IMG/VR virus record: IMGVR_UViG_3300017970_000189
Source: an uncultured virus (IMG/VR IMGVR_UViG_3300017970_000189)
Taxonomy: Duplodnaviria > Heunggongvirae > Uroviricota > Caudoviricetes
DNA length: 64,000 nt
Strand: one strand, 5' to 3'
A program made the translations under genes and the position numbers. Positions 15,530 through 53,692 of the stretch are shown here, in pieces. Under the pieces are notes generated by a model. It saw nothing but the letters and a program-made list of their open reading frames with translations. It was not told the DNA's origin and did not search any database. Numbering within the stretch: the first letter of the stretch is position 1; each line of letters starts with the position of its first letter.

Positions 15530-16056
15530 GGCTTGAGAACTACCCCTAGACCGCTGTTGTGCGGATAGTTCCTGAAGGCATAGTTCGGATGCTCCTTCAG
15601 GAATTCATTGATCGGATCCAAAACCCCGTGAGCATGCGTCGTCGTGTCGTGAAAGATCAGCCTCCCCCCGGGCCGCACCAGCGGCTCAAAGGCCACGATC
15701 TCCTTCTTCGTATGCTCGTACTGGTGGGAAGTGTCCACGAATACAATGTCCACAGGGACTGCCTTGTCCCACTTCGCCGCGAATTCGATGTCATCCCCCT
15801 GCACGAACCTCCACCGGGGCAGCATCCCGTACACCTTCACCATCTCCTGCGTCATCAAGCACGGATCCACGTCCACGCTCCAGAGATGCCCCTCCGTCTG
15901 ATGCACCCCCTCAAGCAACGCCACCGTGCTCTCCCCGCTCCGGACCCCGAGCTCGATCACCGTCTTCGCCTTCATCTCGAGCACCATGTTGTAGAGCGGA
16001 ACGAGATGCTGATTGATGTCGGTGGGTCGTTTCGAATGAATTTGCGTATACTTCAT
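15526..16056 (-). CDS. class I SAM methyltransferase (Methyltransf_24-like)
   Basis: IELGVRSGEST, DIVFVDTSH, GGRLIFHD; alternative start at 16098. Confidence 0.85.
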   Translation of the reverse strand: MKYTQIHSKRPTDINQHLVPLYNMVLEMKAKTVIELGVRSGESTVALLEGVHQTEGHLWSVDVDPCLMTQEMVKVYGMLPRWRFVQGDDIEFAAKWDKAVPVDIVFVDTSHQYEHTKKEIVAFEPLVRPGGRLIFHDTTTHAHGVLDPINEFLKEHPNYAFRNYPHNSGLGVVLKP

Positions 16057-16102
16057 CGGCCCCTCATCCCCGCCTGCCTGAATCTTCCTGACGATCATTT
16101 TA

Positions 16103-16657
16103 TCATGGAACCCTGGGTTTTAGAATAACTCCCATGCCGCTATTATACGAGGCATTCTCGAATCCATACCCTGGATGCCCCTTCAAGAACTCCTGGATCG
16201 GCTTCATCACCCCCTCCGGGTGCGTCGTCGTGTCGTGAAAAATCAACACTCCTCCCGGCCGGACGATCGGCTCGAACACCTCAATCTCCCTCTTCGTGTG
16301 CTCGTACAGATGCGACGTGTCCACGAATACGATATCCACCTTCCGGCTCCGGTCCCACCCCTTCCCGAACTCGATATCGTCACTTCTGACGAACGTCCAT
16401 CTCCCCCCCAGCCCGTACCTCTCCACCATCTCCCGCGCCTTCGGACACTCCTCGATATCCACGCTCACCACCCGCCCATCCGTCCGATTCACCCCCTCCA
16501 GGAACGCCACCGTGCTCTCCCCACTCCTCACCCCCAGCTCCACCACCAGCTTCGCGCTCATCTGGAGCGTGATGAAATAAAGCGAAGTCAAGTGCTCGTT
16601 GATGTCCGTCCGCTTCCTGGAATGTTCCAACGTGTGTTTCATGGGCCTGGCCGACAT
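16103..16657 (-). CDS. class I SAM methyltransferase, tandem paralog of the previous gene
   Basis: VELGVRSGEST, DIVFVDTSH, GGVLIFHD. Confidence 0.85.
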   Translation of the reverse strand: MSARPMKHTLEHSRKRTDINEHLTSLYFITLQMSAKLVVELGVRSGESTVAFLEGVNRTDGRVVSVDIEECPKAREMVERYGLGGRWTFVRSDDIEFGKGWDRSRKVDIVFVDTSHLYEHTKREIEVFEPIVRPGGVLIFHDTTTHPEGVMKPIQEFLKGHPGYGFENASYNSGMGVILKPRVP

Positions 16658-16687
16658 ACATACCGATACTGCGATTTTCTTGGTTAA

Positions 16688-17575
16688 TTACTTTCCAGTT
16701 ACTCTAGAGAAGAGATTATTCCATCGACTAATAAACTTCTTACTACAAAAAATATCTCGCGCACTAGTCTGAGCCACACGTCCCATATTAAGCGCTAACT
16801 CCGGATCCTCAAGGAGCTTCGCCAACCTCAAAAGCGCTCCATCAACAGTATCTACGACATAGCCATTGATTCCATCAGCGATTAGATTTCTAAGGTTGAT
16901 TGGCCTGAAGGTAACTATTGGCAGGCCTGCCATCATAGCCTCTGCTACGCTAATGCCAATAATTGGGCCCGGGTTAAAATAGACTCGAGCATGGCTATAG
17001 ATATCCATCAGCTTTTCGTATGGAATAACTCCTAAAGCTCCAGGAAGGTCCTCATTACCAGACCCAACCAGTGAAAGTGGAATGAATGTATTGACAGTGA
17101 CATAAGGGCAATGACCCTTATCCCATCGCCTTCCGATACGCTTTCCCACGGTAAGCACGATTCTGGTGTCACCAACATGAGGAAGAAATGGAGAGTCGTC
17201 CACCCCCATCTCGATTACAACCTTCTTAGCTGGGTCCCTCATAGTCCAACGTTCAGAAACTTCCTTAGCTAGGAATGCCACCGCAGAGGACCGTTCCTCG
17301 ATCTCTTCAGGGAAAATTCCTTCTGAACAATCCGCGATAATCGCAAAAATCATAGGACCTTTGAAGGCTTTCAACTTCTCGAACATAGCCCAGTGGTTAT
17401 TAATTAGGATGCAATCAAACTCCCCCTCGGGCTGCTCCGTGAACTTCCAATTGTCGGGCAGTTTTCGAATAAGAGGATCCCACTGCCCTTGGTCTCCTAC
17501 AACAGAAAATTCATGACCTGTTTTCGCTAGTTCTGCATCATAACTGGTGTGAGCGTGATGGGTCAGTATCCTCAT
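16688..17575 (-). CDS. GT4 glycosyltransferase
   Basis: EAMMAGLPIV, IADGINGY. Confidence 0.8.
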   Translation of the reverse strand: MRILTHHAHTSYDAELAKTGHEFSVVGDQGQWDPLIRKLPDNWKFTEQPEGEFDCILINNHWAMFEKLKAFKGPMIFAIIADCSEGIFPEEIEERSSAVAFLAKEVSERWTMRDPAKKVVIEMGVDDSPFLPHVGDTRIVLTVGKRIGRRWDKGHCPYVTVNTFIPLSLVGSGNEDLPGALGVIPYEKLMDIYSHARVYFNPGPIIGISVAEAMMAGLPIVTFRPINLRNLIADGINGYVVDTVDGALLRLAKLLEDPELALNMGRVAQTSARDIFCSKKFISRWNNLFSRVTGK

Positions 17576-18297
17576 TGAAAGGATTCCGAAGGTTTAATTC
17601 CTTCATCCCACCACAGCCTCAGCTTCTTGGGCCAGGGTACCGGCTCCACCGCCACCCCTTTGTCCGGCCATCCATCGATCGTCGCCCGAGCCGATTCGTC
17701 ATCCCCAGATTTTTCTCCAAGACAGTAATGAAGATGATGATGGAAATGACCGTAAACCCGAATCAACTGAAGCCCAGCCGGCTGCACTGGAACCGGATGT
17801 CTCTCGGGATTCCCGTCATATTTAGGATGAGATCTCCAAGCTAAATTTTCCGAAATCGCTACATTCCTTTTCGTTGGCCATAACCGTGGATGCCATTCGG
17901 ATGCTCCAAAAACATAAGGCTTTCCGTCCTTCATCCAATGAGCGGTCATTACCTCCACCATAGCTTTTTCAGCCCAAGGGAAAAGCTGATCGACTGATTC
18001 CTTTACATAGAATTCATCTGAATCCAAGTACACTTGAACATCTGCAGCAAACGCCCGCGCTTTCCTCATCGCCCTCTCAAGAGCGCTTCTAACCTTGAAC
18101 TCCTTCCAGCCATGCCCAAAAACAGGTTCATGAAGCCAGATCACGCTATCCGGAAGTTTCGAGAACTTGATCGCGCGATCTGGAGGTGAGGTGTCGAGCA
18201 CCAGATGCGATCCCATCTCGGCATGGTGCTCAATCGCACCGAGAAGGAAATCGTAATCCCGATTGCAAGTTACGGTGAAGAAGCAGACCTTAGGCAT
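17572..18297 (-). CDS. GT-A-like glycosyltransferase
   Basis: YLDSDEF DxD motif, late His cluster, operon context. Confidence 0.55.
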   Translation of the reverse strand: MPKVCFFTVTCNRDYDFLLGAIEHHAEMGSHLVLDTSPPDRAIKFSKLPDSVIWLHEPVFGHGWKEFKVRSALERAMRKARAFAADVQVYLDSDEFYVKESVDQLFPWAEKAMVEVMTAHWMKDGKPYVFGASEWHPRLWPTKRNVAISENLAWRSHPKYDGNPERHPVPVQPAGLQLIRVYGHFHHHLHYCLGEKSGDDESARATIDGWPDKGVAVEPVPWPKKLRLWWDEGIKPSESFQ

Positions 18298-18301
18298 CGA
18301 C

Positions 18302-18643
18302 CTAGGATGACACCCTCATGGCCGGCAGGCCCACCAGCGTCGTCACGCCCGTGCGGCCCCCAAGATAGAGCACCCCGAGCAGCGCCGAGCCTACGCCACC
18401 AACCCAGCCGGCCACCTTGAGATAGTCGTTCCCTTTCTCCCTCAATCCCGTCCGGATCCCCACCCATGCTGCGGCACCAGTGATCGTCAGCACTGAGACC
18501 ATTTCGATAAACCCAGGAATCCCAGTGTATCCCGTGAACAAGAAATCCGGTGCAGGAGGAGGCACCGCAGGCGTTGATGGCGATGTTGACGCTTGAGCCA
18601 AGGCTGTATATACCGGACGATATGCCTGTTGATAAGCGATCAT
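18302..18643 (-). CDS. membrane protein, WxGxxxGL(K/R)EKG hairpin family (ALAQ)
   Basis: MIAYQQAYRP leader; AWVGIRTGLREKG. Confidence 0.75.
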   Translation of the reverse strand: MIAYQQAYRPVYTALAQASTSPSTPAVPPPAPDFLFTGYTGIPGFIEMVSVLTITGAAAWVGIRTGLREKGNDYLKVAGWVGGVGSALLGVLYLGGRTGVTTLVGLPAMRVSS

Positions 18644-18672
18644 AAAATTCCTCAAGGCATTACAGTCTTAGG

Positions 18673-19608
18673 TCATTTCCCTTCAAATGACCCACCCTTT
18701 AGAGCTTCTCTTCCATCCAACTTTACAGATACATCGTCCACCCAAAGAGTCCCTTTTTTGGATGCCATCGAAACTCCGAACTGGAATCTTGCCGCATTCC
18801 TTGGGATATCTGCCTTTGTATAAACCCTCTGCCAGAAAGGGGTATCCATAGGTATAAATGGTCCTATAGTCGAAAAACCAACTCCATTTTGGTCAAAAAG
18901 ATTTACATAAACATGATCATTCCCACTGTCAGTACCATCTGCCAGCACATAAGCTGATACTTCTATCGTTTTCCCGGATACTGGGATCAAATCGGTACTA
19001 AAACCGCTAGTAGCATTTTTTATTTTCTCATCTGAAGGTAATACTTTTATCGAATATGATCCCACATGTGAAACAGTGCCATCTAATATTGGCGCTCTAG
19101 ATCCTGGAGATGTTCCGGGATTCCATCCTGTCGGCAATTGTTTTTGTGAAGTTCCGGGAGGCCTTGCAGCAGCCAGCTTTAACCCCTGCTCCCTTGTTTT
19201 CATCTTCCATAGAGGATCAAGATCAGGCCAACCCTCTGCATACCAGTATGAGGCACGGTCATAGAAAACCCTAAATAACGCAGGAAACTTTTTAGCTGCA
19301 GATACCCATTCATCACCCATTCCAACCTTCTTTGGACCTGAATCTGTATAAAGTGGTGCGCGTTCATGCTCTGCCAAAGTTCTTAATATTTGGTCTGAGG
19401 ATTTTGCCAGAAAAGGCATCGCCCCAGGATAATCTCCAAGAACGAATGCGATATACTTCCCTGCTATTGTATTCGCATCAGGATCCTCTGGCGCGGTTTT
19501 CAGTTTCTCCAAAGATTTCTTGTAGTCGGCCTCAGAGGGAAGTGGAGACGGAGGAGTAAGGAGAAGAGCTGCGCCAGCAATACCGGCAAGCGCTAATAAG
19601 ATTTCCAT
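18673..19608 (-). CDS. exported protein with Planctomycetota-type helical domain and CBM-like beta domain
   Basis: signal/TM N-terminus; PEDPDAN..GKYIAFVLGDY..LAK..GDEW..ASYWY; C-terminal GTLWVDDVSV. Confidence 0.65.
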   Translation of the reverse strand: MEILLALAGIAGAALLLTPPSPLPSEADYKKSLEKLKTAPEDPDANTIAGKYIAFVLGDYPGAMPFLAKSSDQILRTLAEHERAPLYTDSGPKKVGMGDEWVSAAKKFPALFRVFYDRASYWYAEGWPDLDPLWKMKTREQGLKLAAARPPGTSQKQLPTGWNPGTSPGSRAPILDGTVSHVGSYSIKVLPSDEKIKNATSGFSTDLIPVSGKTIEVSAYVLADGTDSGNDHVYVNLFDQNGVGFSTIGPFIPMDTPFWQRVYTKADIPRNAARFQFGVSMASKKGTLWVDDVSVKLDGREALKGGSFEGK

Positions 19609-19695
19609 TTCATAACTCCACAGAGAAATTATATTACCAAATTCTTAACCTAGCAATACATTGTAGACAACCACCGGAAACCGACCAGAACAATC

Positions 19696-20466
19696 TTAAT
19701 CATTCAAAACACCACTATCTCCATTGAGAATTTTTCTTCGTCCAACCTTTACCGCGCGCGTGTAACAAGGAAGGCAGTCCACAAAAACCGGGGAATCATT
19801 CATCCATTTTCCATAAGTCTGCCAACCTCGATTTATCCTATCCTCCGCATTATTCCTCATCTGCTCTGGGCTTCGATATAAATAATGCCGTAATGGGTAG
19901 CTAGTAAGCCTCGTTTCCCCACAATTCGTTGGGATCGTACAAAAATGATTCCTTATGTTATATTTCGTACGACTATCGTATCTGAATTGCCGCAATTCGA
20001 CCCAGCCAGGAAAACATGCCCAAGTCACTTGGTCGACGACTGACTTTGATTCATCATACTTATATGTGTTCTTCTCTGAGATATGTAAAAAAAAATTGAC
20101 CAACCTCCATCCTACAACACCAAAACCTTCTTTAGCTGACTCCTCTGCTACATCGCGAGGATTAACATCGAGAAATATCTCATCCGAGTGAAGTAGAGTT
20201 ATCCATCCGCCATCTGGATGGTCTTTTTGAATTTTCTGAAGAAGAAATTGGCGTGCCCCATCACGGATCGGCTTGTATTCAGGAGGAAGATGTACATCTC
20301 GGACGTAAAATACTATGTTCTTGTGTTTTTCTATAATCTGTTTCGGCTTACCCCAACACGATCCATCTAGTGCATAAACAGCGTCGAAAAACTGGCAATT
20401 ATTTTTTAGAACTTCATCGAGCACATCAAGATCGCCCCGAAACATTAGTAATCCAAAATGCTTCAC
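19696..20466 (-). CDS. GT2-like glycosyltransferase (Glyco_tranf_2_4-like)
   Basis: YALDGS, WITLLHSDE, LRHYLYRSPEQ. Confidence 0.65.
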   Translation of the reverse strand: MKHFGLLMFRGDLDVLDEVLKNNCQFFDAVYALDGSCWGKPKQIIEKHKNIVFYVRDVHLPPEYKPIRDGARQFLLQKIQKDHPDGGWITLLHSDEIFLDVNPRDVAEESAKEGFGVVGWRLVNFFLHISEKNTYKYDESKSVVDQVTWACFPGWVELRQFRYDSRTKYNIRNHFCTIPTNCGETRLTSYPLRHYLYRSPEQMRNNAEDRINRGWQTYGKWMNDSPVFVDCLPCYTRAVKVGRRKILNGDSGVLND

Positions 20467-21083
20467 AATAACTCACCCGGAAAATGTATTAAATAATTAT
20501 AGAATGCTAATGTTCGGTCTATAAATTCGAACTCCTCGGGATACTTATCGTAAATTTCTCTGAAAAACAAAAAGTCCTCAATACCCGCTTTGGTTAGATC
20601 ATAACGAAGATCACCAATCAATTTCCTGTGAACAACAAATTGTGAATTATCAATATGGCATGGTCTCATATTCTCATGCTTAGCCCTCAACAACCCGTGG
20701 ATATCCCAGCGTTGCTGATTGAACACAAATGCCTTTTTTTTATCACACCGCCCAAAGGCCTCTTTCATCTCACAAAACAAACCTGGGTGAACAATGTTAT
20801 CATCATCCAAAATATAGACAAACCCATCTTCAATTAAATCAATCCCGTAGTTTTTTTGTTTTATACCAAAACGGGATGAACCTCCCGAAAAGGTAACCAT
20901 CCTAATCTTTATCCCACATGAAGATCTAAGTGCATCATCGATGTAGTTAGGGATACTAATTGGAGCGTCTACAATCATTAACCAACAAACATCAAGATTC
21001 ACGTCACAATTAGATTCCTCCATAGAGGCTAGGATAGTTGGTAAATTATTCAGGCGTGATACTGCTGTCACAACTGTCAACAT
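20463..21083 (-). CDS. GT-A glycosyltransferase (GT43-like DDDN motif)
   Basis: VVTAVSR, WLMIVD, GFVYILDDDNIVHP. Confidence 0.65.
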   Translation of the reverse strand: MLTVVTAVSRLNNLPTILASMEESNCDVNLDVCWLMIVDAPISIPNYIDDALRSSCGIKIRMVTFSGGSSRFGIKQKNYGIDLIEDGFVYILDDDNIVHPGLFCEMKEAFGRCDKKKAFVFNQQRWDIHGLLRAKHENMRPCHIDNSQFVVHRKLIGDLRYDLTKAGIEDFLFFREIYDKYPEEFEFIDRTLAFYNYLIHFPGELL

Positions 21084-21089
21084 GCTTAA

Positions 21090-21881
21090 TTATTTTTCGA
21101 AGTTATCGATATGTTCTCTGATTAACATGACTCTATCTTCTAGGACTTGAACTTCTGGAAGTTTTCCTTTTACAGATTCATATGCATCTGCCATGACCTT
21201 ATTTCCTACGTTCCTAAATTTCTCAATCTCGAAATCCAGTAAACCAAACGCATGCGCATATATCGGGCCGCAGGCATGAAACACTTTCATTCGCGTACAA
21301 AGGCAGCCGAGCCGACCAAGCGACTTCAACTTTCCCCACACAAAACTACCAAGGTAAAAATGACGTTCATAGGGAGCCTCGAGAAGAATCGGCAGAATAC
21401 TTCTCCGGTAAATACTAAACCAACCATCAATAGGTCCATCATAAAGACCATCCTTAAGATTGATATTTACATAGGAATCCATTCCGGGCCTTGCGCCCGT
21501 AGTAAATTCGTCTTGCCAAACATCGGAAACAAGCTGGTCGACATTCTTATTTCTAGCAAATATTTCAAGAGCGATTTCACCTATTCTTTTTGATATAAAC
21601 AACACGTCTTCATCCATCTGCACAATAAAGTCATACTTCGCCTCCAAAAATAGTTCCTTATACGCATTCATCCCGATATTTCCAGGGGTATGACCTACAA
21701 TTCGTACTGGCACCCCGTCTCTTTGTTTCTTCGAGATGTAATTGCGATATTCACCATCCTTATCTAAAAAGTTCATCCACAAAAGAATCTCATAAGGGCG
21801 ACAAGTAGTCTTACGGGACAATTCCTCTATAACAAGCATGCTATAGTCCGGCCGAATACTAACAACGCAATAAGAGATCAT
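21090..21881 (-). CDS. GT2-like glycosyltransferase
   Basis: YEILLW, NIGM, IVQMDEDV. Confidence 0.65.
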   Translation of the reverse strand: MISYCVVSIRPDYSMLVIEELSRKTTCRPYEILLWMNFLDKDGEYRNYISKKQRDGVPVRIVGHTPGNIGMNAYKELFLEAKYDFIVQMDEDVLFISKRIGEIALEIFARNKNVDQLVSDVWQDEFTTGARPGMDSYVNINLKDGLYDGPIDGWFSIYRRSILPILLEAPYERHFYLGSFVWGKLKSLGRLGCLCTRMKVFHACGPIYAHAFGLLDFEIEKFRNVGNKVMADAYESVKGKLPEVQVLEDRVMLIREHIDNFEK

Positions 21882-21941
21882 TTTGGCAATCCCAATAATC
21901 GATAATACAAATGCTGCTTCAGCAAACAGGTAAAACCTGTT

Positions 21942-22673
21942 TCAGCAGGAATTCTTTTGCCGCAAAATCGGATCATGTTCGCAGTAATTCAAAGCCACTT
22001 CCCGGTTGTATGGCCTCGAGAACTGCTCGTGATCCGGCTCGCCTCCCCATTTCCGGATATAGTAGTCCCTCAGATTCCCGGTGATTTGAGCGAACTTCTT
22101 CTCGAGAACCGGATCCGACTTCACCGTCGAGCTCCCCCAGTGGGGAGCTTCACCATGGACAAACTTGAAGTCGGGGATGCCGACGGCCTTCGCTCCGCTC
22201 AACTTCACGCGCCGGAAATGATCCAAGTCTTCATAGTAGGCAGGAAAGAAATTTTCATCGAAGAATCCGACCGTTTTCAGTCCAAGCTCCGTCATGCAGA
22301 AAATCGAGTACCCGTCCGCACAGACGATCGAAACATTTGGATCCTCATCCAAGGCTCTCGAGATCTTCCCCACGTTTCCGGGCATGAATTGGATGTCGTT
22401 TCCGCAGATCAACCAGGGACTGGAAGAAAGAGTCATGATCCGGTTCCAGGATCCGGCGCAGCCCAGGTTCTCATGGGTTTCGGTACGAATCTGCCGAAAC
22501 AGCTTGGAATTGGGAATCTTCTTTTTCTGGATCTGATCGATCGCCTTCGCCACTTCTCCGCTTGTCCCGTTATTGATGATGAAGAGCGTATCAATCGGGT
22601 GATCCACGCTGGCCACGCATCTGAGAAGAAGGTCGCCGCGGTTGACGATCGGGATCCCCAGCGTGCTGATCAT
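21942..22673 (-). CDS. GT2 glycosyltransferase
   Basis: IINNG, NLGCAGSWN, GFFDENFFPAYYEDLD. Confidence 0.8.
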   Translation of the reverse strand: MISTLGIPIVNRGDLLLRCVASVDHPIDTLFIINNGTSGEVAKAIDQIQKKKIPNSKLFRQIRTETHENLGCAGSWNRIMTLSSSPWLICGNDIQFMPGNVGKISRALDEDPNVSIVCADGYSIFCMTELGLKTVGFFDENFFPAYYEDLDHFRRVKLSGAKAVGIPDFKFVHGEAPHWGSSTVKSDPVLEKKFAQITGNLRDYYIRKWGGEPDHEQFSRPYNREVALNYCEHDPILRQKNSC

Positions 22674-29399: not shown

Positions 29400-29429
29400 A
29401 GTTTACTCCGAAACTATGGGTAATGTCAA
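29400..29429 (-). promoter_or_regulatory. sigma70-like promoter
   Basis: TTGACA-18 nt-TAAACT. Confidence 0.55.
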
Positions 29430-31365: not shown

Positions 31366-31986
31366 CTACGCCTCAAGCTCGACTTCCCAGTATGCACGGC
31401 TCAGGAAGTGCTCCCAGGACTCGCGCCGCATCTTGGGCGGCACCTGGACCAGCGTCTTCCAGCTCGGCTTCTTCGGCACCTTCCGGAGCCTCATGCCGGC
31501 CTGTTCGGGCGTCCGGTCCGCCTTCTCCTTGTTGCACTCCAGGCACGCCAGGACCGTGTTCTCCCAAGTGGACTTTCCACCCTTCGAACGCGGGACGATG
31601 TGATCCATCGTCAGATCCTCATGGTTCGTCGGCTGCGCCCCGCAATACTGGCACGTATAGCGGTCACGCTTGAACAGGTTCCTCCGGGAGAACACCACCG
31701 ACCGCTCGCCCTGCTTCTCGTAGGTCGTCACCATGATGACCTCCGGAGGCACGAGAGCCAGATGACAGGACCGGATCCTGCCCTCACCGAACTCCTTCTG
31801 GGCCTTCGACACATCGTTCCAGGAGTTCAGCTCATGGGTCGCAAAATCGTTCTTCGCGTCGATGATGAGAGCGTGACCCTTAGCGACCAAGCCGATTGCG
31901 TCCTGAACCGTCGTCACCCGCAGGGGGCTCCAAAGCTTATTGAGCACCAGCACGGGTCTTTCCAGGACCTTCGCTTCCGCCGTCAT
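31366..31986 (-). CDS. HNH endonuclease (McrA-like)
   Basis: VLVLN, FSRRNLFKRDRYTCQYCG, DHIVPRSKGG, CLECN. Confidence 0.9.
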   Translation of the reverse strand: MTAEAKVLERPVLVLNKLWSPLRVTTVQDAIGLVAKGHALIIDAKNDFATHELNSWNDVSKAQKEFGEGRIRSCHLALVPPEVIMVTTYEKQGERSVVFSRRNLFKRDRYTCQYCGAQPTNHEDLTMDHIVPRSKGGKSTWENTVLACLECNKEKADRTPEQAGMRLRKVPKKPSWKTLVQVPPKMRRESWEHFLSRAYWEVELEA

Positions 31987-33092: not shown

Positions 33093-33169
33093 TGGTACCC
33101 CCGGTAGGACTCGAACCTACATTTCCCACGTTCGTAGCGTGGTCCGTTATCCAATTACGGGACGGGGGC
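33093..33169 (-). tRNA. tRNA-Arg(ACG)
   Basis: cloverleaf, loop CT-ACG-AA, encoded CCA. Confidence 0.9.
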
Positions 33170-33763
33170 CCCTTTGTCTTGCTGAGGTTCTCCTGAATGC
33201 TGGCGCTCCAAATGGCGAGCGAGAATCTTCCTGGCTTGTTTCTTGAATAGCTGGAATATCAAGATCCTTCGGATTCCCGTCTTCTGCGTGGTCGCCGTCT
33301 CAAGCGTCTGGCAGAAAACGATCAGCTCCTCGTAGGTCCGGTCCGATTTCAGCCCATTGCAGGTGTAACAAGCAGCCACCAGATTCTGATCATCGCTCTT
33401 TCCTCCCTTGGCACGGGGGTAGAAGTGATCGATCGTCTGAGCCACTTCTCCGCAAAAATAGCACGGATCCTTCAGGATCCTGGCTCTCCGGCTATCCCCT
33501 ACCTGAGCTCCCTTGTACCGTTTCTTCTCACGGACTTCCGCGGCTGATCTCCCGGTCGCCTTGACGAACAGCGCCCCGTTCATGTCCCGAGTCCACCCGC
33601 AAAGGCAATCCCACGCCTGACACCCTCCATGGCTGGCGTGAATGATCCTCCCATGCGAGCATTCCGGACACCGATTGACCTCTCGCTTCTTCACCGGCAA
33701 CCCATTCCCTTCCGCATCCGGCCATAACGGATGAAACATGGCTTCCTCCAACGGCTCTCTCAA
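33155..33763 (-). CDS. HNH endonuclease with N-terminal Zn-binding motif
   Basis: CYFCG..TIDHFYPRAKGG..NLVAACYTCN. Confidence 0.8.
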   Translation of the reverse strand: MREPLEEAMFHPLWPDAEGNGLPVKKREVNRCPECSHGRIIHASHGGCQAWDCLCGWTRDMNGALFVKATGRSAAEVREKKRYKGAQVGDSRRARILKDPCYFCGEVAQTIDHFYPRAKGGKSDDQNLVAACYTCNGLKSDRTYEELIVFCQTLETATTQKTGIRRILIFQLFKKQARKILARHLERQHSGEPQQDKGAPVP

Positions 33764-37071: not shown

Positions 37072-37147
37072 TGGTAGGCCGGGTGGGAGTCGAACCCATC
37101 GTCGAGCGCTTATAAAGCGCCTACTCTGACCGTTGAGCTACCGGCCC
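37072..37147 (-). tRNA. tRNA-Ile(TAT)
   Basis: loop TT-TAT-AA, A73, CCA end. Confidence 0.85.
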
Positions 37148-42062: not shown

Positions 42063-42136
42063 TGGCAGCCCGCACCGGACTCGCACCGGTATCTTCGGTT
42101 TGAAGGACCGAGATTCTACTCTTAAACTAGCGGGCC
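42063..42136 (-). tRNA. tRNA-Glu(TTC)
   Basis: loop CC-TTC-AA; T-loop TGCGAGT. Confidence 0.8.
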
Positions 42137-42139
42137 AGA

Positions 42140-42445
42140 TGGACGCGCGCTATAAGCCGGGTCCTGTTCCCATTTTCGGGGCGGAAGTCATCAATCTAGA
42201 CCGTGCCTTGCGACACAGCTCAAGCAGCCTACCCGCACGCGATCACGGTCGAGCCAACCCGCGTGCCTATTTGGCTTTGCTCCAGGTGGGGGTTGCCGCG
42301 TTTCACCCCTATCTCTTTCGAGATAGGACTCGTCTCTGTGGCCCTGTCCATCGGCTTGCGCCGTGCGGCCGTTAGCCGCCACCTTGCTCTATGGAGCCCG
42401 GACTTTCCTCCGACCTTGCGGCCGGCGACTTCCCGCTGCGCATCC
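42140..42445 (-). ncRNA. rnpB: RNase P RNA (bacterial A-type, compact)
   Basis: GAGGAAAGTCCGGGCT ... GGGTGAAACG ... ACAGGACCCGGCTTA; terminal P1 pairing. Confidence 0.93.
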
Positions 42446-42451
42446 AAATTT

Positions 42452-42527
42452 TGGCACCTCGCACGAGAGTCGAACTCGTATTTCCGCCTTGAGAGGGCAG
42501 CGTCCTAAGCCGTTAGACGAGCGAGGC
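42452..42527 (-). tRNA. tRNA-Glu(CTC)
   Basis: loop CT-CTC-AA. Confidence 0.88.
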
Positions 42528-48929: not shown

Positions 48930-49005
48930 TGGAGCGGGTGATGGGATTCGCACCCACGATCTGCTCGTTGGCAACGAGCCGTGTTGGCTCCTACACTACA
49001 CCCGC
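48930..49005 (-). tRNA. tRNA-Gly(GCC)
   Basis: loop TT-GCC-AA, U73. Confidence 0.88.
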
Positions 49006-49535
49006 ATATTTGGCCGTCGAGGACGTCCATTCCCCTTGTTAAGTGCTCCGTAGTTCGGAGTTAGGGAGTGACAGTTTGGACAGATAAGCTCAAGATTTCT
49101 TGGTGAAGAATCCCTCCACTTTCCGTTCTTATGGTTTACCGTCAGAGGAACTTTCCCCGTCGTAGGATTCACAACACCCCAGCCGCACTTCTCGCACTTC
49201 GACTTGTTCTTCTCGTATAGATAGCGACGAATAGGGTTCGCAATTGACTGCCCTCTGGTTCCGTCCTCCTCACCCCTGAGCCACCGCTTGATAAAGCCCC
49301 TGTAAACAAACTCCCGATAACATCTCGGAGAGCAGTAGTCATTATCCTTATGACGATCTGTGGTATCACTTCCACAAGATCGGCACTTTGGCCTCTTTCT
49401 CAGCGGCCTTGCTGTTGAGATCCCGAACTTTGCCGCCCAGTATCGGATATTTGCGATGGAGCACCTCAACTTAGTTGCAGCCCCCTGTAGCGTATGCCTC
49501 TGCTTGAGAGCGCGTCTAAGAACCGAGCACTTCAT
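48996..49535 (-). CDS. HNH homing-type endonuclease
   Basis: YCSPRC, CEKCGW, LTVNHKNG, NLELICPNCHSLT; lower GC. Confidence 0.88.
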   Translation of the reverse strand: MKCSVLRRALKQRHTLQGAATKLRCSIANIRYWAAKFGISTARPLRKRPKCRSCGSDTTDRHKDNDYCSPRCYREFVYRGFIKRWLRGEEDGTRGQSIANPIRRYLYEKNKSKCEKCGWGVVNPTTGKVPLTVNHKNGKWRDSSPRNLELICPNCHSLTPNYGALNKGNGRPRRPNMRV

Positions 49536-52028: not shown

Positions 52029-52346
52029 TTAATCGAAGCTTCGAGATTCCCATTCGTCTAGAGCTCGGTGAATGGTGGAAACCAGTTCTGGATTCGTCGG
52101 GTCCTGCCAGATATCCGGACCGACATCGAGATAGCGGACCTTGTAGAGCTGATCATGAGGGACAAAGGTCGGCTCCCAGTGATGCATGATCACGATCCGG
52201 TCCGCCCATTCCGAAAGCTGATCGATCGGATCGGGAAAGTTGCTCTGCCAGCCGGATGCCATCGCGTTGTGTCCGCGACTCTTGAGAGCGGTTGCGCAGG
52301 CCACGCTCCGCGTATTTCCCCCGGCACAGATGCACAGGAATTTCAT
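52029..52346 (-). CDS. low-molecular-weight PTP-family phosphatase
   Basis: FLCICAGGNTRS (Cx5RS); WADRIVIM. Confidence 0.82.
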   Translation of the reverse strand: MKFLCICAGGNTRSVACATALKSRGHNAMASGWQSNFPDPIDQLSEWADRIVIMHHWEPTFVPHDQLYKVRYLDVGPDIWQDPTNPELVSTIHRALDEWESRSFD

Positions 52347-52750: not shown

Positions 52751-53100
52751 TGGTGGACCCGCCGGGAGTCGCACCCGGGTCTCAGCCAAGTCGTCAGGGG
52801 CGTCTACGCGCGTAGGCGGCGATTTCTTCTCGGCCTCGGCGCGGGCACCGCCGCCCTCGCTTCGGCCATATTCCGGATTTGATCTCGGCTTCCTTCTCCC
52901 GGACTCTTCAGAATGCCCAGCCGATTATTAACGTCCTTCCATGCCGATCGGCGTAGACACGGCGGACGTCGCGGTCAGGCCGCGAGAGCGAGGCTGCCCT
53001 TGGCAGTTGATTGTTTAGCCGGCTTTTAGCCTGGCCAACCGGCCAACCAGGACGCGCAGCTTGCCTTTCTCCTTAGTTGATCGAAATCTAGTTCGGGCCC
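52751..53100 (-). ncRNA. ssrA: tmRNA, tag peptide (A)AKGSLALAA*
   Basis: GGGCCCG/CGGGUCC-ACCA with G3:U70; AAUCAACU then GCC resume codon; tag ORF 53004-52975. Confidence 0.92.
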
Positions 53101-53104
53101 ATCT

Positions 53105-53378
53105 TGGAGCAGTATACCCTGCTCCCTCTCTAGAACAAGTTTTTCGCGATGGGCTTGACCTTCCCCATCTGCGGGATAGAATGAAGAGCTCGGGGGGCCA
53201 GCCTTTCCCAGGCCGGCCCCCCGGCTCGTTGTGCTCTTTGGACTTCAGCCCGATTGTCAAAACGCGGCGTCTTAACCACGCCGCACGCTTCTCGTCACGC
53301 CGCCGGCCAAGGCCGTTGCATCGTGCCGAGGACTTCAGTCGCCGCCCGTCAGCTCCTTCACCGGGGCTGACGGGCAAA
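53105..53378 (-). ncRNA. candidate structured RNA between the attenuator and tmRNA
   Basis: five strong hairpins; CTGAAGTCC occurs twice. Confidence 0.4.
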
Positions 53379-53396: not shown

Positions 53397-53433
53397 AAAA
53401 AAACCCCGCGTCCTCTTCAGGGCGCGGGGTTTT
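53397..53433 (-). terminator. intrinsic terminator (attenuator)
   Basis: CCCCGCGCCCU-GAAG-AGGACGCGGGG-U7. Confidence 0.85.
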
Positions 53434-53448
53434 GATTTTCGGTCCTGT

Positions 53449-53616
53449 TTACGCCACCGTCACCCCCGCGCCCTTTCTCGCCTGTTCGGTGGCTCGAATC
53501 TCGGTGGGCTTCCAATTCGTACCGAGATAATCCACAAACTGGCGATCGACTGACAGACTGTGGCTCCCTGGCAAGGATCGTCCTTGCGGTCGCCTGAGTA
53601 ACGATGTCAGTCGCAT
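53449..53616 (-). CDS. 55-aa putative attenuator leader peptide (not in ORF track)
   Basis: MRLTSLLRRPQGRSLPGSHSLSVDRQFVDYLGTNWKPTEIRATEQARKGAGVTVA*; last codons contain the antiterminator. Confidence 0.6.
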   Translation of the reverse strand: MRLTSLLRRPQGRSLPGSHSLSVDRQFVDYLGTNWKPTEIRATEQARKGAGVTVA

Positions 53617-53663
53617 GATCACGGAAGGTCGTGCTCCTTCTTGAATCCTTTGCTTACTCCAAC

Positions 53664-53692
53664 AGCTTATACGCCGAAAGGTTCGCTGTCAA
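53664..53692 (-). promoter_or_regulatory. sigma70-like promoter of the RNA-gene island
   Basis: TTGACA-17 nt-TAAGCT. Confidence 0.7.

Follow-up and report, generated by a model that had tools for sequence, protein, structure and literature searches.

The 64,000-nucleotide window analyzed here, IMG/VR record IMGVR_UViG_3300017970_000189, carries on its - strand a compact unit at the upstream border of an island of transfer-messenger RNA (tmRNA), transfer RNA (tRNA), and RNase P RNA genes. The unit comprises a promoter-like site, a Shine-Dalgarno (SD) sequence, a small open reading frame (ORF) of 57 codons, and an intrinsic terminator (T1) whose 5' arm has an exact complement within the ORF. 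Our reading is that of a conserved terminator/antiterminator switch that depends on ribosomes translating the ORF, and sequence features, conservation, and predicted folding give this about an even chance. The putative link between this switch and the tRNA island is partly contradicted by the anatomy downstream. A first-pass annotation of the same DNA had proposed a ribosome-coupled attenuator acting as a pan-tRNA sensor; a conserved unit with the geometry of an attenuator was indeed found, but neither the supposed codon design nor the control of about 20 kb from a single site was borne out.

The stem of T1 has one internal C.A mismatch, as had been annotated, and is followed by seven U residues; it has a predicted energy of -23.9 kcal/mol (z = -5.55), and none of 200 shuffles was as stable. 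The stem begins 19 nt past the ORF stop codon, and a terminator just past the end of a leader ORF is characteristic of attenuators. Late in the ORF, AGGGCGCGGGG is the exact reverse complement of the T1 5' arm, CCCCGCGCCCU, over 11 nt. Dinucleotide shuffling of the 189 nt upstream produced a perfect complement of at least 11 nt once in 5000 trials and one of at least 10 nt in 7 of 5000, so the annotated complement is both confirmed and beyond chance. Sequence and folding thus agree on an antiterminator that takes the T1 5' arm and is mutually exclusive with the terminator, as in attenuators. The antiterminator helix with its loop is predicted at -30.9 kcal/mol against -23.9 for T1 in the window, and at -28.9 against -22.2 kcal/mol in a related locus (L002), where the alternative helix has 10 bp and is also perfect. 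The antiterminator helix is present when the entire leader is folded to minimum energy and when three sequences are folded to a consensus, while the full leader with each state enforced has energies of -104.4 and -101.3 kcal/mol, which describes a near-balanced two-state RNA. The ORF stop codon falls in the 34-nt loop separating the antiterminator strands, and by its coordinates the arm is placed where a ribosome finishing the leader would mask it, again the arrangement of an attenuator. The terminator mismatch occupies the same stem position in both lineages (C.A in the window, C.U in L002), and the U7 tail is also the same. Spurious antisense ORF translations from three other contigs (P0025-P0027) read KKPRDL... 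across the terminator; if they share the register of L002, base 2 of the Asp codon and the fixed G of the opposing Gly or Ala codon would impose the same mismatch there.

According to the proposed mechanism, transcription would start approximately 7 nt after TAAGCT, near 53657, and in the emerging RNA the ORF arm would pair with the T1 5' arm and exclude the weaker terminator hairpin. A naked or poorly translated transcript would be read through because the antiterminator excludes T1. If the ORF is translated and its translation is coupled to RNA polymerase, a ribosome on the last ~8 codons or on the stop codon would cover or unwind the arm and fill the loop, leaving T1 free to form and releasing an RNA of about 260 nt; the footprint size used for this masking geometry is general knowledge. 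An earlier stall, such as one at codon 43, a rare CGA that is conserved, would leave the arm free and favor read-through. The element would in this way report the quality of leader translation, presumably its signal, because ribosome position selects T1 or the antiterminator. The immediate product of read-through would be a structured spacer RNA of about 210 nt, from which transcription may or may not continue past hairpin H4 into the tmRNA and tRNA genes. Terminators very near a stop codon are described as being repressed by the ribosome, with efficiency rising with distance (PMC4824070). An extension in which the switch is a translation-stress gate, so that with an unfinished leader transcription bypasses T1 and crosses the spacer to reach the tmRNA and tRNA genes that the element carries, is unlikely; its triggers could include ribosome inhibitors, host shut-off, or an anticodon nuclease of the host that depletes tRNA-Arg(ICG) or other tRNAs, and backup translation RNAs would then be made on demand.

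The promoter-like site, ORF, terminator, and complement all lie on the - strand at the positions given by the first-pass annotation (Table 1). The pattern TTGACA-N16-18-TANNNT has two matches in the window against 0.32 expected, and the leader site is one of them; a generic promoter scan overlooked it because its -10 hexamer, TAAGCT, has only three of six consensus matches. In L002 the -35 hexamer is identical and the -10 hexamer is TATCCT at the same spacing, with T, A, and T kept at its positions 1, 2, and 6. The window's only other perfect TTGACA-N17-TAnnnT, TTGACA...TAAACT with an N17 spacer at 29400-29429 (- strand), lies just 3' of a 542-amino acid ORF. The presence of an SD sequence and start codon ahead of the terminator is a further feature of ribosome-mediated attenuators. 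Counted from the ATG at 53616, the ORF has 55 codons, of which 40 are distinct, with 19 kinds of amino acid and four CGA codons, exactly as annotated. The suggestion that the in-frame GTG at 53622 suits the SD sequence better is strengthened by comparison, as all 11 members of the protein family described below begin there while the ATG position is Met in eight of the 11, and the GTG is most likely the start. The SD sequence had also been said to sit in a small hairpin; a hairpin does occur there (53641-53624, 5 bp, -4.8 kcal/mol), but its stability is at the level of chance, with 39 of 200 shuffles folding equally well.

Conservation was examined from the 289-amino acid neighbor ORF directly upstream, for which the protein database contains 10 close relatives, 55-92% identical, plus a single weak and partial match. 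A metagenome-contig search with a profile of the 10 close relatives yielded two loci: L001, with a neighbor protein 92% identical and a nearly identical leader, and L002, with a neighbor protein 55% identical. The order of promoter-like site, SD sequence, ORF, arm, terminator, spacer, tmRNA, and tRNAs is common to both, the antiterminator arm is identical in both, and the ORF frame and the position of its stop codon are kept, in answer to the comparison of homologous loci that the first-pass annotation had called for. Over the ~600 nt from promoter to tmRNA, identity is ~90% (column mean, three aligned loci). Between the window and L002, the 289-, 84-, and 105-amino acid ORFs have dS values of 1.11, 1.96, and 1.35, dN/dS of 0.27, 0.11, and 0.14, and third-position identities of 0.51, 0.49, and 0.52, respectively; for the small ORF the values are 0.11, 0.73, and 0.93. 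Several patches inside the region have diverged like neutral sequence, namely the 5' untranslated region between the start site and the SD sequence, the spacer hairpin Hvar, the middle of the spacer hairpin H4, and the promoter spacers. Because both the flanking genes and these internal patches are saturated, the conservation from promoter to tmRNA argues for constraint rather than recent transfer of the segment. By these rates the small ORF evolves like a constrained RNA that retains a frame; our reading is that the frame is translated and that the sequence is held mainly by RNA-level constraints, perhaps also by constraints on the peptide. Further relatives were not found among phage records (blastn with 3.7 kb), plasmid records (631 nt), or, by scans, viral contigs and genome contigs. 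Four run contigs provided no new leader sequence: X2 is an L001-like strain, X20 has only the tmRNA end, X23 covers only 53175-53334, and X3 has nothing.

For the ORF product, an exhaustive search of 1.84 billion protein representatives returned four matches, of which one is a true relative (P0013, 60 amino acids); the other three were discarded as CRISPR-repeat-like or other repetitive translations. A profile search extended this to a family of 10 database proteins of 57-60 amino acids, and the 11-sequence alignment has 25 invariant columns. The family is biased toward intact frames because its members were found as called proteins; L002, having been found through the neighbor gene, is free of this bias. 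All indels between the window and L002 within the ORF are multiples of three (-3, +3, +3, and +3 by eye; three blocks with MAFFT), for which the chance by arithmetic is 0.012 with four events or 0.037 with three. When the peptides are back-translated, the arm bases can be matched without mismatch in seven of the 11 members (six as xGAG, one as WARG), compared to 2-10% of trials with shuffled tails; the remaining four have one or two mismatches, which shuffled tails reach in 46-87% of trials. P0013, P0020, P0022, and P0023 are the lineages in which the peptide has AQG or AWG over the arm. The back-translation test of an arm in a shifted frame is weak because shuffles match so often. Pfam and PHROG contain no family for the product and the ESM Atlas gave no usable match, and AlphaFold2 predicted the peptide with low confidence (mean pLDDT 54.9). 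The peptide, which is basic and lacks a hydrophobic stretch as read from its sequence, shows no sign in these models of being a folded protein.

Between T1 and the tmRNA, RNAalifold predicts a conserved structured RNA with 77 pairs, 14 of which have compensatory changes. The contig X23 represents a third lineage and has C-G replaced by U-A at 53280/53268 and G-C replaced by C-G at 53217/53197. The strand from which this RNA is read is less clear: the G.U pairs of H4, seen at three positions across three lineages, fit only the - strand sense, but two adjacent pairs of H2 are kept through a U.G/C-G exchange only on the + strand. No Rfam family was found for the spacer on either strand, and for the leader and spacer together no family reached its gathering score, with sub-threshold matches only (E-values up to 10). 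On its + strand the spacer contains a boxA-like TGCTCTTT, which was rejected as not above chance (three matches, 1.76 expected). Three promoter-like elements lie beyond T1. On the + strand, TTGACC-16-TAGAAT corresponds to TTGACG-16-TAAAAT in L002, with the hexamers conserved and the spacer diverged. On the - strand, the reading of TTGTTC-16-TATACT is ambiguous because the same bases can form a hairpin, and these may instead be part of a precursor; GTGTCA-17-TAGAAT follows the tmRNA and tRNA-Gly genes. From the two conserved - strand elements, the island probably has several entry points. The first-pass annotation had named transcription mainly from internal promoters, such as the TATACT element upstream of tmRNA, as what would refute its proposal, and the conserved hexamers go part of the way toward that outcome on comparative evidence.

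Several observations weigh against a switch of the kind proposed. None of the 67 predicted leader pairs has a compensatory change and all are invariant, and leader DNA is covered by only two independent lineages; because the leader pairs never vary, neither helix has support from covariation. An anti-antiterminator of the trp type would require consistent pairing of the arm within the leader, but folding predicts one set of partners for the arm in the window and another in L002. The core of the peptide, with 25 invariant columns in 11 sequences, shows more conservation than would be required of a leader acting by position alone. A second sense frame across the same stretch is likewise open, so openness alone means little. 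The downstream genes seem to have promoter-like elements of their own and H4, by its predicted fold, looks like a second stop after T1, for which reasons the regulated target is unclear. Finally, the + strand promoter-like site facing a bidirectional T1 fits a convergent pair of small genes.

The original proposal that a stall at almost any codon opens a ~20-kb operon (tmRNA, ~43 tRNAs, RNase P RNA, and RtcB) is quite improbable. The leader unit does stand at the upstream border of the RNA island, by its geometry any stall before about codon 45 would favor read-through, and the ORF draws on 19 amino acids and 40 codons. This diversity is unusual only relative to the biased genes nearby, where 55-codon windows taken from 26 local genes (1282 in all) have 30.6 +/- 3.1 distinct codons, with 0.16% of them at 40 or more; if all 61 codons are used uniformly, the mean is 36.5 and 9.8% reach 40, and the other two frames of the ORF DNA have 38 and 36. 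The diversity claimed as a design feature is therefore an absence of codon bias, at the level of unbiased sequence, in nucleotides frozen by other constraints. The ORF also has Asp, Tyr, and Trp codons, for which no matching tRNA was identified in the array by ARAGORN (one Rfam tRNA, 51262-51190, has no assigned anticodon). Protein genes, including those for HNH endonucleases, are interspersed with the tRNA genes, and the structured ~210-nt RNA, H4, and two conserved promoter-like elements that separate the switch from most of the island speak against control of the whole from one site. A narrower codon signal is that CGA makes up four of the seven Arg codons of the ORF, compared to 6.6% of Arg codons in the 26 local genes; it is the sole enriched codon (p = 5.6e-4 uncorrected, ~0.02 corrected for ~40 codons). 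L002 also has four CGA codons, of which by eye three are common, with one lost (R15I) and one gained (P18R). A tRNA-Arg(acg) gene is located at the far end of the array, and the CGA excess may point to sensitivity to tRNA-Arg(ICG), as a lead and not a result.

A somewhat unlikely alternative is a stand-alone small gene or dual-function small RNA, in which the ~260-nt transcript is itself the product, a structured RNA encoding the basic 57-amino acid peptide, and the alternative helix aids folding or stability of the finished RNA, or locks its translation, instead of controlling read-through. The unit has its own promoter-like site and strong terminator, its synonymous sites are frozen throughout the ORF as in a functional RNA (dS 0.11 compared to 1.1-2.0 in the neighbors), and variation and indels sit in predicted loops. 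When the terminated RNA is folded to minimum energy, the start-codon region is paired with the freed 3' arm, and this would shut translation after release. There is also precedent, as the terminated trp attenuator RNA of Sinorhizobium meliloti (rnTrpL) and its leader peptide (peTrpL) are each reported to be functional, acting in trans (PMC7298713, 10.1101/606483), and a similar dual function would explain the conservation of both RNA and peptide here; that leader is described as having 14 codons and sensing tryptophan. However, a perfect complement with a predicted helix stronger than a mismatch-weakened T1 in both lineages is required by a termination switch and avoided by plain terminators, and the conserved structured RNA past T1, with the G.U pairs of H4 in the - sense, suggests that the - strand is transcribed beyond T1. 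The frozen synonymous sites and dN/dS of 0.73 would also suit a non-coding structured RNA with an incidental frame, where T1 ends either this RNA or the upstream operon; codon usage resembles that of non-coding DNA, another frame is open, and the product has no protein family and a poor fold prediction. Such an RNA is nevertheless quite improbable when an SD sequence and start codon occupy one conserved position in 11 of 11 sequences, the L002 indels are all multiples of three, and the stop stays in place also in members with an apparent frame shift over the arm. The + strand promoter-like site brings in a convergent pair resembling type I toxin-antitoxin systems, consisting of the - strand ORF mRNA and a structured ~250-nt + strand RNA from TTGACC-16-TAGAAT that share the bidirectional T1 and overlap at their 3' ends. 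T1 reads as a terminator on the + strand too, where its stem is paired throughout (one G.U) and is followed by a U-rich tail, the + promoter-like hexamers are conserved around a diverged spacer, and the H2 exchanges keep two adjacent pairs on the + strand only. The toxins TxpA and BsrG, known from pairs with 3' overlap, are membrane peptides, but the 57-amino acid peptide lacks a hydrophobic stretch; the diverged spacer of the + promoter keeps a small hairpin through compensatory changes, suggesting that it is transcribed, the H4 G.U pairs fit only the - strand, and the - strand has a perfect U7 whereas the tail on the + strand is weaker in L002, all of which leave a convergent pair highly improbable.

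Table 1. Features of the leader unit, the spacer, and the adjoining RNA island
Feature	Position	Strand	Details
Stop codon (TAA) of 289-amino acid neighbor ORF	53703-53701	-	directly upstream of leader
Promoter-like site TTGACA-17-TAAGCT	53692-53664	-	-35, 53692-53687; -10, 53669-53664
SD sequence AAGGAG	53639-53634	-	11 nt 5' of GTG 53622; kept in L001 and L002
Small ORF, 57 codons	53622-53449	-	GTG start 53622; in-frame ATG 53616; TAA 53451-53449
CGA codons 4, 11, 15, and 43	53613-53611, 53592-53590, 53580-53578, 53496-53494	-	
Antiterminator 5' arm AGGGCGCGGGG	53474-53464	-	within codons 50-53 (K-G-A-G) of 57
Intrinsic terminator T1	53433-53397	-	5' arm 53429-53419; 3' arm 53414-53404; U7 53403-53397
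Conserved structured spacer RNA	53396-53160	conflicting evidence	~210-240 nt; five hairpins; RNAalifold
Spacer hairpin H2	53375-53344		
Spacer hairpin Hvar	53330-53291		six pairs changed on both sides
Spacer hairpin H3	53284-53264		
Spacer hairpin H4	53227-53186		-42.5 kcal/mol; U-rich tail CUCUUCAUUCUAU
Small spacer hairpin	53179-53160		
Promoter-like TTGACC-16-TAGAAT	53155-53182	+	10/12; points away from tmRNA toward bidirectional T1
Promoter-like TTGTTC-16-TATACT	53138-53111	-	ends 10 nt 5' of tmRNA; hexamers conserved, spacer diverged in L002
tmRNA gene	53100-52751	-	Rfam RF00023, 91.4 bits; tag-like frame AKQSTAKGSLALAA* 52975-53019
tRNA-Gly(tcc)	52742-52669	-	8 nt past tmRNA end
Promoter-like GTGTCA-17-TAGAAT	52658-52630	-	9/12; hexamers conserved, spacer diverged in L002
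RNase P RNA	42445-42137	-	Rfam, 229 bits; 309 nt, class A
RtcB	42075-40696	-	

Leader-peptide attenuation is known for amino-acid operons and some antibiotic-resistance genes, and tRNA arrays, whose regulation is poorly understood, are frequent in large phages and other mobile elements. Full-text searches of the literature found, among the papers listed, no leader-peptide attenuation before tRNA or tmRNA genes; the one paper in which tRNA operon, leader peptide, and antiterminator occur together concerns pheL, and a search on huge phages, tmRNA, and RNase P yielded nothing relevant among its listed papers. In the amino-acid leaders (trpL, hisL, leuL, thrL, and pheL), a ribosome at the leader end favors termination. 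The proposed switch would share with them a short translated ORF and a ribosome position that picks an antiterminator or a terminator sharing one strand. It differs in lacking consecutive regulatory codons, its four CGA codons being scattered, in a leader that is 3-4 times longer with a well-conserved peptide, and in the lack of a consistent anti-antiterminator of the 1:2 type. The Rfam scores for Thr_leader (RF00506, 22.6 bits, gathering score 55) and Leu_leader (RF00512, 23.3 bits, gathering score 50, on the opposite strand) are so far below gathering that the leader is a member of neither family, and the island has no second copy of the leader sequence. By analogy, the closest known system is the bmrB leader of the Bacillus subtilis bmrBCD operon, reported to act by ribosome-mediated transcription attenuation through a 53-amino acid leader ORF that responds to ribosome inhibitors (PMC4191407). 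As described there, both leaders are long (53 and 57 amino acids) and in both an intrinsic terminator at the ORF end faces competing alternative stem-loops; bmrB is said to sense the general rate of translation and not one amino acid, with rare leader codons tuning read-through. In contrast, the bmrB terminator is reported to be inside the coding region while T1 begins 19 nt past the stop, and blocking translation of bmrB lowered read-through, whereas folding here predicts that untranslated RNA is read through (PMC4191407). According to the same report an ABC transporter is controlled, while RNA genes lie downstream in the present case, and the sequences are unrelated. Should the proposed switch operate, synthesis of a regulatory RNA, and perhaps of rescue RNAs, would be coupled to the state of translation; on the unlikely translation-stress reading, a recurrence of the class before unrelated phage tRNA arrays would make it a general, unpublished principle in the regulation of tRNA genes of mobile elements. 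Read more modestly, the unit still represents a well-defined and conserved RNA switch from an uncultivated element, as well as a clear case of an ORF constrained as RNA.

The remaining features of the window concern the island and its surroundings. The tmRNA gene was called by Rfam and was missed by a default run of ARAGORN, while the tRNA genes comprise 40 from ARAGORN, three more from Rfam, and one more from relaxed ARAGORN, with 41 distinct anticodons identified where the first-pass annotation had counted 44, 37 of them called on by the ORF. A tRNA-Ile(TAT) at 37072-37147 (- strand) reads AUA directly; the array also has a tRNA-Ile(gat) and three tRNAs with the anticodon CAT. The RNase P RNA abuts a tRNA-Glu on each side (42063-42527, - strand), with ctc upstream and ttc downstream, and all three could be cut from one precursor. 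The proteins of the island include RtcB, a DnaJ-domain protein, a metallophosphoesterase, a match to the C-terminal domain of Fe/Mn superoxide dismutase, and HNH endonucleases, the ORFs for which lie among or beside the tRNA genes at 31366-31986, 33155-33763, and 48996-49535 (- strand). The 105-amino acid ORF (52029-52346, - strand) has no significant Pfam match and starts with MKFLCICAGGNTRS, which by eye we take to resemble the C-X5-R loop of low-molecular-weight phosphatases or ArsC-type proteins. The ORFs upstream of the leader have no known family, except that one matches a PHROG of unknown function. Nearly all long ORFs of the window are on the - strand, and the window looks like a large phage or other mobile element, from peat or soil metagenomes by the run labels. 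Beyond the island there are many glycosyltransferases, methyltransferases, and epimerases. The region from 16000 to 22000 has a GC content of 0.40-0.50, compared to ~0.58 elsewhere, and contains glycosyltransferase and methyltransferase genes, which suggests a separately acquired sugar-modification cassette.

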